Shown: piece after piece, positions 2,066-7,623 of the stretch | Numbering within the stretch: position 1 is the stretch's first letter | How the letters are laid out: each line of letters opens with the position of its first letter | From: Candidatus Uhrbacteria bacterium RIFCSPHIGHO2_02_FULL_53_13 | Lineage (GTDB): Bacteria > Patescibacteriota > Patescibacteriia > UBA9934 > UBA11717 | DNA: 37,229 nt | NCBI GenBank assembly: GCA_001791035.1 | Contig: MGDX01000006.1 | Location: 1,787-39,015, forward strand | Reading direction: 5' to 3' | Notes under the pieces: model-generated | Seen by the model: only the letters and a program-made list of their open reading frames with translations | Database searches by the model: none | What the model was told of the DNA's origin: nothing | Position numbers and translations under genes: made by a program

Positions 2066-2803
2066 ATGCCTATGTCGACGGAAGAACATCAAGCATCGGT
2101 GAACGAGAATCAAGCATCGGGAATCTCGAATCAAGCAGAGTCGGAAACAACGATGGCGGTTTTGGATACCGCAACGGAGGTATCGGCTTCCGGAACTCCA
2201 GCGCCTTCGAGCGATGGGGAGCGCGGTGGACGCGGAGGTCAGCGTCGTCCTCGCCGCACGCGCGAGCGTGAACCGCGTGAATTTGAACAGACGATTCTTG
2301 ATCTTGCTCGTGTCACGCGCGTGACGAAAGGAGGTAAGCGCATGCGATTCCGCGTGGCGCTCGTGATCGGGGACAAAAAGGGACGCGTAGGATTTGGCGT
2401 GGCCAAAGGCGCCGATGTTCAAATGTCCATTCAGAAGGCGTACCATCAAGCGAAGAAGAACGTGACGAATTTGGAATTGGTGAACGGAACGTTTCCACAT
2501 CGCGTTTCAGCGTCGTTTAGCTCGGCGGATGTGTTGCTCATGCCGGCTCCAAGCGGAACGGGACTCAAGGCCGGTGGAGCCGTGCGTACGATTTTAGAAC
2601 TCGGCGGCGTGAGCGATGCGGTGGGAAAAATTCTTCGAGGCCACAATAAATTGAATGTTGCCAAAGCCGTGTTTAACGCGTTGAGTCAGATGACCATTCC
2701 AGAAGGCGTGACGACGGATAAGGAACAGCGCGCATCCAAGCGGAAAGAAATTCGTAAGGAGGCTTCCAAAAAGGTCGCAAAGAAAACGACCGCAAAGAGC
2801 TAG
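2066..2803 (+). CDS. rpsE: 30S ribosomal protein S5 (uS5) with N- and C-terminal low-complexity extensions
   Basis: The core ..VTRVTKGGKRMRFRVALVIGD.KGRVGFGVAKG.. and ..GTGLKAGGAVR..LE.GG.. is typical uS5. About 70 extra N-terminal residues (Ser/Glu/Arg-rich) and a Lys-rich tail are added. Confidence 0.93.
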   Translation: MPMSTEEHQASVNENQASGISNQAESETTMAVLDTATEVSASGTPAPSSDGERGGRGGQRRPRRTREREPREFEQTILDLARVTRVTKGGKRMRFRVALVIGDKKGRVGFGVAKGADVQMSIQKAYHQAKKNVTNLELVNGTFPHRVSASFSSADVLLMPAPSGTGLKAGGAVRTILELGGVSDAVGKILRGHNKLNVAKAVFNALSQMTIPEGVTTDKEQRASKRKEIRKEASKKVAKKTTAKS

Positions 2804-3343: not shown

Positions 3344-4630
3344 ATGTTTGAAGCGTTTAGACGCATTTGGAATATTAAAGCCCTTCGCAAAAGTATCGGC
3401 TTCGTGATTCTCATGCTGATGCTGTTTCGATTTTTGGCAACCATTCCGGTGCCGGGGATTGATCCGGCATTAGTGCGCTCGGCTCTGGAAGGCAATCAGT
3501 TTTTTGGCTTGCTCAACATTTTTTCCGGCGGAACGCTCGAAAGCTTTTCTGTGGTGGCTCTTGGTGTGGCCCCTTACATTACAAGTTCGATTATTTTTCA
3601 ACTTTTAGTGATGGTCGTTCCATCTCTCAAGCGCATGCAAAAAGAGGAAGGAGAAGCGGGGCGCCAAAAAATGAATCAGATTACCCGTTGGGTTTCGGTG
3701 CCGCTTGCCGCCATCCAGGCCTACGGATTCATTGCGCTCATCTCTCAAGGGAGTGGCGGTGGAGCAGGACAGGGCCTGCTCATTATGGGTTTTAGTCTTT
3801 TTATGGCCATGCTCGTGATGATTGCCGGTTCGGTGTTCTTGATGTGGATTGGAGAGATTATCACAGAGAAAGGCATTGGGAACGGATTGTCCATCTTGAT
3901 TCTTGCGGGAATTATTGCGGCGTTTCCACGCTATCTTCAACAAACGATCGCTACGTTTGATCAAAGTCAAATCGTGAATATGGTGGTGTTTGCGATTGTG
4001 GCTCTCGTGACCATTGTGGTGGTTGTTGCGCTCAATGAAGCGAGCCGCAATGTGCCTGTGCATTATGCACGCCACCATGCAGGCAATCGGTTGAGCGGCG
4101 GCGTCAACTCTCAAATTCCGCTTAAAGTACTTATGGCCGGAGTGATTCCAATTATCTTCGCTATTTCGGTGGTGCTCTTTCCAACCATGATTGCACAATT
4201 CTTCTTGCACGCACAGTCGCCGACCTTGATTACGCTTGCCGAGTGGGTTCTGCGTACGTTCCAGAACAACTGGGTGTACGGCATTCTGTACTTCGTGCTC
4301 GTGTTTGGATTCACGTACTTCTACACAGGTGTCATTTTTCAACCAGACGAGATGGCAGAAAATTTACAAAAGCAAGGTGCGTTTATTCCTGGCGTGCGTC
4401 CGGGAACGCACACGGAGGCGTTTTTGCGCAATGTCATGAACCGTATCTTGCTTCTGGGAGCGACGGCTCTTGCAGTCATTGCCGTACTTCCGGTGGCCAT
4501 GCAGCCGCTCACGGGCTCGCAAACGTTAGTCGTCGGCGGAACGTCACTTCTTATTATTGTTGCGGTGGTGATTGATATTGTGCGCCAAACCGAAGCTCGG
4601 TTGGTGAGCTACGAGTACGAGCAGTTGTAG
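3344..4630 (+). CDS. secY: Preprotein translocase subunit SecY
   Basis: 428-aa polytopic membrane protein (..IFSGGTLESFSVVALGVAPYITSSII.QL..) in the conserved position after rplO. Confidence 0.95.
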   Translation: MFEAFRRIWNIKALRKSIGFVILMLMLFRFLATIPVPGIDPALVRSALEGNQFFGLLNIFSGGTLESFSVVALGVAPYITSSIIFQLLVMVVPSLKRMQKEEGEAGRQKMNQITRWVSVPLAAIQAYGFIALISQGSGGGAGQGLLIMGFSLFMAMLVMIAGSVFLMWIGEIITEKGIGNGLSILILAGIIAAFPRYLQQTIATFDQSQIVNMVVFAIVALVTIVVVVALNEASRNVPVHYARHHAGNRLSGGVNSQIPLKVLMAGVIPIIFAISVVLFPTMIAQFFLHAQSPTLITLAEWVLRTFQNNWVYGILYFVLVFGFTYFYTGVIFQPDEMAENLQKQGAFIPGVRPGTHTEAFLRNVMNRILLLGATALAVIAVLPVAMQPLTGSQTLVVGGTSLLIIVAVVIDIVRQTEARLVSYEYEQL

Positions 4631-4683
4631 AAAAATAGGAGTGCCGCGATTTTTACAGAGATCTTGTAAGTAAAACCCGGGGT

Positions 4684-4759
4684 TGGTGGAGCCGACGGGA
4701 TTTGAACCCGCAATGGCTGGTGTGGACTCAGCTAAGGTTACCGTTACCTTCACGGCCCC
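4684..4759 (-). tRNA. Atypical tRNA, anticodon CCA (nominally Trp), with an Ala-like acceptor stem (G3:U70, A73) and encoded CCA
   Basis: The minus strand reads GGGGCCG-TG-AAGG-TAACGGTAA-CCTT-A-GCTGA-GTCCACA-CCAGC-CATT-GCGGG-TTCAAAT-CCCGT-CGGCTCC-A-CCA. This is a 76-nt cloverleaf with a canonical T-arm and GG in the D-loop. The anticodon arm is non-canonical: an A31-C39 mismatch, G32 and C37. Confidence 0.6.
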
Positions 4760-4818
4760 GGCTCCAGTCCCCGGGATATCAACAATAAAACTCCGCCAAC
4801 AATGAGGGGAGTTTATTG

Positions 4819-4856
4819 CCACACCAACTGGGACCGTAAAGGTCTTAGCTGAGTGA
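4819..4856 (+). pseudogene. Degenerate, inverted and permuted partial copy of the neighbouring tRNA
   Basis: On the plus strand, CCACACCA (4819-4826) equals the tRNA anticodon-loop/3' stem segment. GGGACCGTAAAGGT-CTTAGCTGAGT (4830-4854) matches tRNA positions 1-13 (12/14) plus the segment CTTAGCTGAGT (11/11), with the D-loop deleted. Confidence 0.45.
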
Positions 4857-4860
4857 TATT

Positions 4861-4889
4861 ATTGAATCAATATTCTCCACATCTGTCAA
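4861..4889 (-). promoter_or_regulatory. Putative sigma70-type promoter for the tRNA leader transcript
   Basis: On the minus strand, TTGACA (4889-4884), a 17-nt spacer, then TTCAAT (4866-4861). Confidence 0.35.
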
Positions 4890-4933
4890 GTGGATAACTA
4901 TAGTCATTTCATAGTGTGATGACCATATGTTCA

Positions 4934-4962
4934 TTGCAAAGAAGATGACATTTGTTTAAACT
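4934..4962 (+). promoter_or_regulatory. Putative adk promoter (near-leaderless)
   Basis: TTGCAA, 17 nt, TAAACT. The -10 element ends 8 nt before the adk ATG at 4971. Confidence 0.4.
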
Positions 4963-4970
4963 ACGCCCGT

Positions 4971-5603
4971 ATGATTGTCATTATTCTCGGACCGCAAGGA
5001 TCAGGAAAAGGTACGCAAGGAAAAAAACTCGCCGAGTTTTTTGGCGTTCCATTTGTGAGCGCGGGAGAGTTACTGCGCGAGGAAGCGGCATTGGGATCGG
5101 AGCTCGGCCGACGGATTCATGAGATTATCAACGTGCAAGGCGAGCTCGTTCCGCCGGAAGTGATTACGGATTTGCTGGATGCTCGTAGAATGAAAGATGA
5201 TGCCAAGCAGGGCATGATCATTGACAGCTACCCGCGTGATCTTCAGCAACTGGAACTCATGCGTAAACGATTTACGCCGGACGTGGTAGTGGTACTCAAT
5301 CTTTCCGACGACGAAGCGATCAAGCGCCTTGGCGGTCGAAGGCAATGCCCTGACGGCCACATTTATCATCTTGTGTTCAATCCGCCGAAGAGGGAAGGCG
5401 TATGCGATGTGGATGGCAAACAACTTTTGGTACGCGATGACGATCGTGAGGAGGCCATACGCAATCGACTTGGATGGCATCGCGGTAAAACAGAACCGAT
5501 GATTGGGGCGATGGAACAGAGTGGCGTGCGCGTAGTGCATGTGGATGCGTCGGCGGGGATTGACGATGTGCAAAACGCTGTGCGTAAAATCGTCGGAATA
5601 TAG
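4971..5603 (+). CDS. adk: Adenylate kinase
   Basis: P-loop N-terminus MIVIILGPQGSGKGTQ, a ..FVSAGELLR.. segment, and a LID segment CPDGHIYH..C.VDG. Confidence 0.93.
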   Translation: MIVIILGPQGSGKGTQGKKLAEFFGVPFVSAGELLREEAALGSELGRRIHEIINVQGELVPPEVITDLLDARRMKDDAKQGMIIDSYPRDLQQLELMRKRFTPDVVVVLNLSDDEAIKRLGGRRQCPDGHIYHLVFNPPKREGVCDVDGKQLLVRDDDREEAIRNRLGWHRGKTEPMIGAMEQSGVRVVHVDASAGIDDVQNAVRKIVGI

Positions 5604-6825: not shown

Positions 6826-7623
6826 GTGAGTATGACCTCCATCATCACTGCTGTGGTACTCGGAAGCCGTGACTACAAAGATTACGATCGCTTTTATGAC
6901 TTGTATACGAAGGAGCGAGGGAAGGTGATGGTGTTTGGCAAAGGGACGCGGAAATTTCAAAGCAAGCTTGCCGCTCACATGCAACCATTTGCAGAATTGA
7001 CGTGCATGGTAGCTCATGGAAAGCTTTGGTTGCGTCTTGCGGGCGTAGAACGACGGCGCGATTTTCCCGGTGTGCGACGCGATCTTCAAACGCTCGGTCT
7101 CGGACTTGGCCTCAATGAACTGCTCCGTGTCGGCGTGGGTTCCGGAGAGTCGGATGCTTCGCTCTATGCGTTTCTTCTTGACGCTTACGCATGGGTGGAT
7201 GCGCTTTCACCCCCATCGCGCCATCGCACCGCGTTCATTCACAGTGCCATTACACTCAAGTGGCTGATTCTGCTCGGCGTTGGACCGCACTGTGACGCGT
7301 GTGTGATTTGTCACTGTGAACTCGAGCGTGTTGTACAGCCCCACATTTCGGTCATGCACGGCGGATTGGTGTGCACAAAATGTGTTCAACAAGATCGACC
7401 TCGGTTTGCGGATGCTCGTCGCGTGAGCCATGAACTCGTCTCCGCCCTACGATTCCTTGCAATGGCACCGTTTGACGTTTTACTCTCTCGCAGTTTTGAA
7501 CCCCTGCTGAACGATTTAGCTGTTGTCCAGGATCAATTTGTCACGTACCATCTTGAGCGAGAACTTAACACCACTGCATTTATTTATGATCTCAACGATC
7601 AACCGATTGCCGAGCTTGCTTGA
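6826..7623 (+). CDS. recO: DNA repair protein RecO
   Basis: OB-fold N-terminus (..AVVLGSRDYKDYDR...LYTKERGK..) and a Cys4 zinc motif, CDACVIC...VCTKC. The start is GTG 6826, or alternatively ATG 6832. Confidence 0.8.
   Translation: MSMTSIITAVVLGSRDYKDYDRFYDLYTKERGKVMVFGKGTRKFQSKLAAHMQPFAELTCMVAHGKLWLRLAGVERRRDFPGVRRDLQTLGLGLGLNELLRVGVGSGESDASLYAFLLDAYAWVDALSPPSRHRTAFIHSAITLKWLILLGVGPHCDACVICHCELERVVQPHISVMHGGLVCTKCVQQDRPRFADARRVSHELVSALRFLAMAPFDVLLSRSFEPLLNDLAVVQDQFVTYHLERELNTTAFIYDLNDQPIAELA

Follow-up and report, generated by a model that had tools for sequence, protein, structure and literature searches.

The G3:U70 wobble pair suffices for recognition of a tRNA by alanyl-tRNA synthetase (AlaRS) (PMC11415595), and the bacterial alanine identity set consists of A73, G2-C71 and G3.U70 (PMC9976931, Table 1). 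Allo-tRNAs that combine G3:U70 with GCG or UUA anticodons have been described (Mukai et al., PMC5389517), as have mistranslating anticodon variants of tRNA-Ala (PMC10543346) and mistranslating tRNA variants (PMC11415595). Here, we analyze a 76-nucleotide (nt) tRNA-like RNA that resembles these hybrids in having G3:U70, A73 and G2-C71 with a non-alanine anticodon. It is encoded on the minus strand, at positions 4684-4759, of a 37,229-nt stretch of DNA (the window) from Candidatus Uhrbacteria bacterium RIFCSPHIGHO2_02_FULL_53_13 (GenBank assembly GCA_001791035.1, contig MGDX01000006.1). In allo-tRNAs, which serve in decoding, the acceptor/T geometry is 8/4 or 9/3 and the variable arm is long, whereas the RNA of the window is a 7/5 cloverleaf with a 4-nt variable region and an anticodon loop that appears unfit for decoding (C37). 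It belongs to a cassette in which each copy has its own co-evolving antisense leader, which is unreported for allo-tRNAs.

Other described systems share single features with this locus. The tRNA-like domain of transfer-messenger RNA (tmRNA, ssrA) has G3:U70, A73, CCA and a closely similar T arm, and is a precedent for alanylation without anticodon reading. The RNA of the window differs from tmRNA in being a complete 76-nt cloverleaf with no pseudoknots and no tag reading frame; it scores 34.4 bits with RF00023 (cut-off 47), and ARAGORN finds no tmRNA there. T-box leaders (RF00230) likewise carry a codon-like triplet that matches an anticodon, followed by an intrinsic terminator. However, the leader studied here has no RF00230 match, and no Stem I platform, T-box sequence or antiterminator was found in it; moreover, the regulated "gene" is the tRNA-like RNA itself, and the pairing covers ~21 nt including stem strands. 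In ColE1 RNA I/RNA II, hok/sok and CopA/CopT, a single-stranded antisense RNA meets a U-turn, anticodon-like loop and spreads to a long duplex in a cognate-specific manner. In those pairs the target is an mRNA or primer; in the cassette it is tRNA-shaped, and the antisense is permuted and located upstream on the same strand, within one transcription unit. Staphylococcal non-proteinogenic tRNA-Gly feeds FemAB-type cell-wall synthesis and not decoding. The Bacillus cereus pseudo-tRNA known as tRNA-Other is non-decoding and part of a larger regulatory transcript (PMC3399842). Both of these last RNAs come from a single locus, in contrast to a multi-copy family, and neither has the alanine identity set or a leader complementary to itself. 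In none of the nearest published systems does an RNA of alanine-type tRNA shape come with an antisense leader that is dedicated to it, permuted and co-evolving.

From comparison with related genomes, we consider it probable (roughly 0.6) that this locus is one copy of a lineage-restricted, multi-copy RNA cassette that occurs mainly in the Candidatus Uhrbacteria order of the window, and is not a tRNA-Trp gene. The original prediction for 4684-4759 had described an aberrant tRNA with a Trp anticodon and had not considered a multi-copy family or a co-evolving antisense leader, which are the main result of this work. A BLAST search with the 76-nt gene had matches (71-82% identity) in 18 of the 40 relatives searched, or in 19 of 41 genomes when this one is included. 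The matched genes are near-identical but have different anticodons. ARAGORN labels the full-length matches tRNA-Leu, Ser, Thr, Val or Pro; the matched copies have the common sequence GGGCCCGUGGAGGUAAYGGUAACCUC...U-NNN-CAC-C...GGGUUCRAAUCCCGUCGGGUCCACCA. In a 20-copy alignment across relatives, 93% of cells are paired and 14 pairs are altered on both sides, a result matched by none of 500 shuffles, and G1-C72, G2-C71 and G3.U70 are constant in all 20 copies. Folding of the 76-nt gene alone gave a modest gain over shuffles (z = -2.2), but the covariation in 20 copies supports the cloverleaf as real and not a chance fold.

A covariance model, R1, built from the alignment of 20 look-alike copies, scored family members at 79-96 bits and ordinary tRNAs at no more than 52 bits; the window copy, at 90.4 bits, is among the best members. 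Searched across the order, R1 was positive in 90 of 151 genomes, which have 1-9 copies each and more than 200 copies, roughly 225, in all. In 150 other genomes of the phylum it produced just two borderline matches, both ordinary tRNAs. Among the matches listed, the named public records with the family (at least about nine loci) are Candidatus Uhrbacteria, "Patescibacteria group" metagenome-assembled genomes (MAGs) and one Peribacteria MAG. A family pattern with 26 specified bases gave, in other phyla, listed matches that were mostly tmRNA 3' ends, and a restrictive family pattern had no match in viral contigs. Among 83 well-aligned copies, GGG/UCC (G1-G2-G3/U70-C71-C72) is present in 82 and ACCA in 70. 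With so many copies, an invariant acceptor end and compensatory changes, the suggestion that the locus is a decaying pseudo-tRNA fails at the level of the family. A full-text literature search, which did not cover the supplement of the Weinberg 2017 motif survey, found no description of such a cassette, and a scan of 4600-4960 with Rfam 15 (E up to 10) gave the tRNA model and noise only, the leader having no match at all. The cassette is apparently an undescribed RNA gene family.

The cassette in the window is composed of the following features, in the direction of transcription after the whole.

4632-4899, minus strand: whole cassette; by spacer alignment, DNA absent from the secY-adk spacer of two same-genus genomes
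4889-4897, minus strand: DnaA-box-like nonamer TTATCCACT, which abuts the -35 element; displaced, starting 8 nt before -35
4861-4889, minus strand: promoter with -35 TTGACA (4884-4889), a 17-nt spacer with TG, and -10 TTCAAT inside TGATTCAAT (4861-4869)
4844-4853, minus strand: leader segment A, CUCAGCUAAG, antisense to nt 22-32 (D-stem 3' strand, nt 26, anticodon-stem 5' strand)
4830-4843, minus strand: copy-specific leader segment ACCUUUACGGUCCC, antisense to nt 1-14 with two G.U pairs (cofold)
4819-4828, minus strand: leader segment B, GUUGGUGUGG, antisense to nt 34-43, with the "codon" UGG opposite CCA
4780-4818, minus strand: A-tract (4812-4818), terminator-like hairpin CUCCCC...GGCGGAG (4791-4811) and U-run UUUUAUUGUUG (4780-4790)
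4769-4775, minus strand: inverted repeat IR-L, CCCGGGG, pairing with IR-R across the tRNA-like RNA
4684-4759, minus strand: tRNA-like RNA, alanine-type, reported as "tRNA-Trp" (ARAGORN, RF00005, 20-copy covariation, R1 at 90.4 bits)
4676-4682, minus strand: inverted repeat IR-R, CCCCGGG, then UUUU

Each cassette has the same order, i.e., a TTGACA promoter with an extended -10, segment A, a short hairpin, segment B, an A-tract, a hairpin with a U-run, a gap of ~22 nt and the tRNA-like RNA bracketed by an inverted repeat. The leader, ~95 nt long, corresponds to the antisense of the D arm and anticodon arm in circularly permuted order, the break point being the anticodon loop. It is predicted to fold into two stacked hairpins, P1 (the anti-anticodon stem) and P2 (the anti-D arm), and its single-stranded 3' tail is the anti-loop. 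In this copy there are two further complements, of nt 1-14 to ACCUUUACGGUCCC and of the 5' flank to the 3' acceptor strand, which are not general in the family. Within that flank, GGAGCC at 4760-4765 (minus strand), just before the tRNA-like RNA, is together with G1 Watson-Crick complementary to the 3' acceptor strand and offers an alternative A3-U70 register.

The signals around the leader are also conserved. TTGAC occurs at the equivalent site in 80 of 83 cassettes, and the -35 element lies at -130 (window) and -117 in the two family copies of this genome, compared with -37 to -51 in its ordinary tRNA genes; a generic promoter scan missed the window promoter because of the T at position 2 of its -10. 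In an RNAfold-based scan, 82 of 83 cassettes showed a hairpin (median dG -17.8 kcal/mol) and U-run separating segment B from the tRNA-like RNA. The window hairpin is weaker, at -9.2 kcal/mol, and was missed by a simple terminator scan but caught by the RNAfold-based one. Upstream of -35, a TTATCCACA box with at most one mismatch is present in 35 of 80 cassettes, versus 0.7% in random background, and 36 of 45 boxes with up to two mismatches begin 17-18 nt before -35. Inverted repeats with compensatory changes are seen to flank many copies, e.g., CCCGGAUCG/CGAUCCGGG and CCUGA/UCAGG.

The TTATCCACA sequence is also common elsewhere in the assembly of this genome, with 45 exact sites compared with ~6 expected from base composition. 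These sites often occur as pairs 24 nt apart and form many clusters, far more than one replication origin needs; examples are contig C5:5975-6407 beside dnaA (C5:6441-7787), C9:20194-20531, C10:22288-22547 and C17:36604-36717.

The tRNA-like RNA itself has the features that the original prediction had pointed out. Both the ARAGORN call (tRNA-Trp, CCA) and the sequence bear out a 76-nt minus-strand cloverleaf with a CCA anticodon and an encoded CCA end, and the reported G3:U70, A73, A31-C39 mismatch, G32 and C37 are all present. The acceptor stem is GGGGCCG/CGGCUCC, with G1-C72, G2-C71, G3.U70 and A73; after its 5' strand come UG, the D arm AAGG-UAACGGUAA-CCUU and then A. The anticodon arm, GCUGA-GUCCACA-CCAGC, contains A31.C39, G32, U33, C34 C35 A36, C37 and A38, and is followed by the CAUU variable region and the T arm GCGGG-UUCAAAU-CCCGU. 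ARAGORN accepts the gene, and its RF00005 score (36.5 bits over 4687-4759, with 31:39 as the non-standard pair) exceeds the gathering score of 29, but lies well below the 57-70 bits of the three ordinary tRNAs in the window.

A further feature of the family is the match between each leader and its own tRNA-like RNA. At constant positions, segment A complements nt 22-31 at about -96 and segment B complements nt 33-43 at about -70. On average, the match of a tRNA-like RNA to segment B scores 9.4 of 11 with its own leader and 5.6 with leaders of other copies, and the corresponding values for segment A are 8.8 and 5.0 of 10. In the window copy, segment A scores 8 of 10 (at -93) and segment B 8.5 of 11 (at -69). 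The predicted pairing gain is -9.7 kcal/mol for cognate and -3.5 for non-cognate combinations. An exact Watson-Crick leader "codon" is present in 30 of 38 members with anticodons other than UGA, including UGG in the window. Paralogues of one genome often have UGA in common but differ in the stem bases that follow, which indicates that the unit of specificity is the 11-nt segment and not the triplet.

The decisive count was made pair by pair in 75 cassettes. In 30 of the 75, positions 31:39 are paired within the tRNA-like RNA, whereas the leader has a Watson-Crick partner for nt 31 in 60 (segment A) and for nt 39 in 72 (segment B). For 29:41, 56 cassettes have the internal pair and 19 a mismatch, but each side is Watson-Crick complementary to the leader in 71. 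The leader hairpin P1 is also less well paired than the contacts between leader and tRNA-like RNA. As these contacts are better kept than either hairpin, selection acts on the duplex of leader and tRNA-like RNA, whether intermolecular or long-range. The weak point is the loop-proximal pair.

These observations suggest the following scheme. A single promoter would give the ~95-nt leader, an intrinsic terminator follows, and read-through transcripts would carry the tRNA-shaped RNA. Since 82 of 83 cassettes have the terminator between these two parts, one would expect an excess of leader as a separate small RNA, of ~80 nt from the predicted start to the U-run. Attached or released, the leader could dock its tail as a toehold on the U-turn anticodon loop, and strand swap might then start at the weak loop-proximal pair, taking the anticodon stem first and the D stem next. 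The outcome would be a ~21-base-pair (bp) duplex, with the lower half of the tRNA-like RNA unfolded and the acceptor/T minihelix intact, i.e., an RNA lock. The "anticodon" would then serve each copy as an address for its own leader, and CCA in the window would be a drifted address compensated by the leader UGG. That the lock operates by strand exchange, the order of exchange, its action in cis or in trans, and its function are points that we infer from the sequences.

The triplet facing the anticodon lies in a single-stranded stretch just upstream of an intrinsic terminator, and the tRNA-like RNA can be made by read-through only, because the U-run begins ~22 nt before its 5' end. Both facts would also fit a T-box-like feedback attenuator, in which the mature tRNA-like RNA contacts the nascent leader by its anticodon loop only and sets read-through of the terminator, so that each copy autoregulates and the tRNA-like RNA is never unfolded. 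We regard this as doubtful. Neither RF00230 nor any other Rfam model matched the leader at E up to 10, and inspection revealed neither an alternative antiterminator fold nor a conserved UGGN bulge that could receive the NCCA end. Furthermore, the complementarity extends over both stem strands and a D-stem strand and is better conserved than the stems, none of which a loop-only contact needs.

With regard to aminoacylation, the identity elements are nearly invariant. G3.U70, A73 and G2-C71 are found in the window copy and in 82 of 83 family members; G3.U70 and A73 are also present in all true tRNA-Ala genes of the genome, and most copies have exactly the acceptor stem of its tRNA-Ala(GGC), GGGCCCG/CGGGUCC. 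A gene for AlaRS was found in the genome, at contig C17:3739-5532. The proposal of an alanine-accepting tRNA is thus supported as far as sequence reaches, and we conclude that the tRNA-like RNA should be a good substrate for AlaRS and a poor one for tryptophanyl-tRNA synthetase (TrpRS). That the alanine set is invariant, the G18G19/T-loop elbow intact and CCA encoded implies that a folded, alanylatable form matters.

The anticodons, in contrast to the acceptor stem, vary. Their counts (nt 34-36) among the 83 copies are as follows.

UGA 45; UGU 9; UGG 7; CGA 5
UAA 3; UAG 3; CGU, UGC and GUC 2 each
UCA, CGC, UAC, GAG and CCA 1 each

The window copy is the sole CCA among these 14 anticodons. A pyrimidine occupies nt 37 in 77 of 83 copies (69 C, 8 U), and nt 32 may be any base. 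Positions 31:39 are paired in 30 of 77 loops, and the combination expected for decoding (Y32, U33, R37 and paired 31:39) is present in 1 of 77; the window copy departs from a decoding loop (7 nt, Y32, U33, R37, paired 31:39) in G32, C37 and A31.C39. No copy in the family has the long variable arm required for Ser or Leu identity. The ordinary tRNA set is complete in G004, a relative that lacks the family, with Ser-UGA, Thr-UGU, Leu-UAA, Leu-UAG, Pro-UGG and Trp-CCA among its members. These loop sequences argue against decoding by the tRNA-like RNAs.

Decoding is nevertheless what a gated mistranslating tRNA would require. In such an RNA-only toxin-antitoxin system, the alanylated RNA would read the codon matching its anticodon (here, UGG as Ala), a labile leader would mask it, and loss of transcription would unleash mistranslation. 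An alanine identity set joined to mostly non-alanine anticodons is what one would expect of such a toxin, and in E. coli, natural G3:U70 tRNAs with non-alanine anticodons (allo-tRNAs, PMC5389517) both accept alanine and take part in decoding. The cassette is also patchy, multi-copy, variable in site and absent from the orthologous spacer of congeners; its 11-nt address differs among paralogues of one genome, and its gene order favors an excess of masking RNA. Against this stand the single fitting loop among 77, the pyrimidine 37, three members whose alanine anticodons (two UGC, one CGC) would make them harmless, and Trp codons that remain conserved in SecY and Adk. We therefore consider the system very unlikely, and the earlier idea that the RNA mistranslates UGG is unlikely, CCA being one drift variant of 14 anticodons and 1 of 77 loops being fit for decoding.

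The RNA may have a role outside decoding. Unlocked RNA might be alanylated by AlaRS and used independently of codons, e.g., as a donor for a FemAB-type transferase, or might act as a regulator; this is our favored guess, but no more than a tentative one. Equally tentative is a fuller version, an RNA-only switch that would produce an antisense lock and, by read-through, an alanine-charged tRNA mimic off the decoding cycle, the availability of the mimic being gated by toehold strand exchange at the anticodon loop. In this version the promoter often has a DnaA-type box, and the mimic might feed FemAB-type wall bridges or enter ribosomes without a codon. As regards a tmRNA-like entry into ribosomes, most relatives have an ordinary tmRNA. 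A FemAB-family gene is present in the genome, whereas the C-terminal domain of MprF and RqcH (NFACT-N) were not found in it. FemAB was also considered as a phyletic partner of the cassette and dropped, as its presence in 145 of 151 genomes irrespective of the cassette makes the comparison uninformative.

We next turn to tryptophan. Bacterial Trp identity is set by G73, A1-U72 and G3-C70 (PMC9976931, Table 1); the window gene has the anticodon C34 C35 A36, but A73, G1-C72 and G3.U70 in place of these elements. Below, G000 denotes the assembly of this genome (with C-numbers for its contigs), and G001 and G002 are genomes of the same genus. Relatives have canonical tRNA-Trp genes (G004, AGGGGUA...UACCCCU-G-CCA with a CUCCAAA loop; G001, AGGGGCG...G-CCA), and BLAST matches to canonical tRNA-Trp occur in at least 21 of 41 genomes, cassette carriers among them. 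The tRNA-Trp genes of G004 and G001 do not match the window locus, which matches the alanine-type family instead. An odd, lineage-specific tRNA-Trp, the second of the earlier suggestions, thus fails.

In G000, no canonical tRNA-Trp was found by ARAGORN, by regular expressions or by BLAST with the genes of two relatives, nor is there one upstream of secE-nusG or beside the orthologue of the gene that flanks it in G001. The assembly is 93.8% complete and consists of 41 contigs, and the window copy is its sole gene with a CCA anticodon. TrpRS is encoded at C7:6446-7417, and Trp codons of the genome recur in congeners (5 of 5 in SecY, compared with G002, and 1 of 1 in Adk). That the window gene is the genuine, if unusual, tRNA-Trp of the organism would account for the sole CCA anticodon and the presence of TrpRS. 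However, the wrong identity elements (PMC9976931), a canonical and unrelated tRNA-Trp in a same-genus genome and at least 20 other relatives, a CCA anticodon in 1 of 83 family members and an assembly that is incomplete and fragmented leave this scarcely credible. Most likely, the true tRNA-Trp lies in the unassembled part of the genome.

This case is relevant to annotation. tRNA finders call genes of this family tRNA-Ser, Thr, Leu, Pro or Trp, and such calls can make a genome seem complete while a true tRNA is absent; here, the sole "tRNA-Trp" call is the window gene.

The gene lies antisense between secY (3344-4630) and adk (4971-5603), within rplO-secY-adk-map-ruvX-recO. The secY-adk spacer is 340 nt long here, compared with ~102 nt in G002 and ~72 nt in G001, neither of which has a family match in this spacer, and the extra DNA, at ~4632-4899, coincides exactly with the cassette. 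As aligned, these spacers indicate that the cassette is gained and lost on a short time scale. Cassettes occur at many genomic sites, and an all-against-all BLAST of open reading frames around 48 loci found no recurring neighbor gene, transposase and integrase genes included.

Further copies were observed in this genome and beyond the order. A second copy on contig C1 (5421-5497, minus strand; locus L022/L027), called "Thr CGU" by ARAGORN, scores 78.9 bits with R1; the anticodon is faced by ACG in the leader, and the 3' end of the copy, ...CGGGUCC-CCAC, has lost the discriminator A. The ordinary tRNA-Thr(CGU) of the genome is at C16:37150-37225. A third module, on contig C37 (~2250-2325, minus strand), is a D-armless alanine-type look-alike (GGGCGUG/CACGUCC, G3.U70, A73, T loop UGCAAUU), in which a single long hairpin replaces the anticodon arm. 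It has a promoter-antisense-terminator small-RNA unit on both sides; the downstream unit is complementary to the hairpin over 17 contiguous nt, one pair being G.U.

In a Candidatus Peribacteria MAG (CAYFJZ010000003.1; locus L170, ~6850-7152), a cassette of Uhrbacteria-type layout has an 11/11 leader complement at -70, followed by a terminator. This copy outside the order reflects either a wider distribution or a mis-binned contig. In a Candidatus Saccharibacteria MAG (CAZTXE010000054.1; locus L097, 520-760), a tRNA-like RNA with G3.U70, A73 and CCA has its partner downstream, as a separate gene after the tRNA-like gene, with its own promoter, a 13-nt perfect antisense to the anticodon arm and a terminator.

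Several points weigh against the interpretation of the locus as a copy of a functional, leader-controlled cassette. The case rests on DNA comparison throughout. Segments A and B cannot pair together in a simple nested fold, and a connector of 12-19 nt must bridge ~21 bp, which is feasible on paper. The patchy distribution, in 60% of genomes, argues against a core function. As FemAB is near-universal in the order, it lends no specific support to a cell-wall role. The absence of any other CCA-anticodon tRNA from the assembly, ascribed to the missing 6%, is an uncomfortable coincidence. The window copy, in addition, is a weak one (8.5/11 and 8/10 in the leader, a terminator of -9.2 kcal/mol, a displaced box and no downstream terminator) and may be decaying.

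The last point leads to the view that the window copy is a relic of the cassette with no function of its own. Its below-average leader complementarity, its weak terminator relative to the family median, its displaced box and the lack of a downstream terminator would all agree with this, and the two other copies in the genome have a lost discriminator base (C1) or are a divergent cassette variant (C37). On the other hand, the family-invariant positions are all intact, R1 ranks the copy among the best members, and the leader provides UGG for its unique anticodon, a match that takes at least two co-ordinated changes per side from the UGA/UCA consensus. A relic is, in our view, improbable.

Complementarity could in principle also persist by DNA-level correction of inverted repeats. 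The cassette would then be a small element that moves or recombines, its repeats staying similar through template switching or because movement requires them. Its presence/absence polymorphism between congeners, its many sites with no conserved neighbor gene and the inverted repeats that flank the tRNA-like part are features one would expect of such an element. However, no transposase or integrase gene recurs near the copies, the repeats are permuted and 70-100 nt apart, and promoter and terminator are conserved around the segments. Moreover, G.U pairs are tolerated, a signature of RNA and not DNA pairing. An element whose complementarity serves DNA is therefore highly improbable.

If the lock is real, the cassette would be the first tRNA-shaped, aminoacylatable RNA whose folding is under the control of a co-evolving antisense RNA from its own transcription unit, and its anticodon loop would be an address for RNA-RNA recognition rather than a codon reader. 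It would also offer RNA engineering a natural toehold/strand-exchange device on a tRNA scaffold. Were the switch version to hold, regulators derived from tRNA would gain a new class, one whose 11-nt address can be programmed. For the biology of the candidate phyla radiation, the family is an accessory, multi-copy RNA element in ~1 Mb genomes with very few regulators.

Some additional observations concern tmRNA and ordinary tRNAs. A two-piece or minimal tmRNA was considered as a general reading of the family and rejected, as ordinary tmRNA is present in 33 of 41 relatives, unrelated to the presence of the cassette; G000 has no tmRNA above the Rfam threshold and no SmpB, and both same-genus genomes are also without a tmRNA match above threshold. 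ARAGORN reports at C10:27582-27663 an 82-nt "tRNA-Ala (UGC)" with neither G3.U70 nor a T loop, probably a false positive. Finally, tRNA-Ile with a UAU anticodon is encoded in both G000 (C18:19077-19153) and G004 (locus L073, 3026-3101), which points to a tRNA with UAU as the reader of AUA codons in this lineage.

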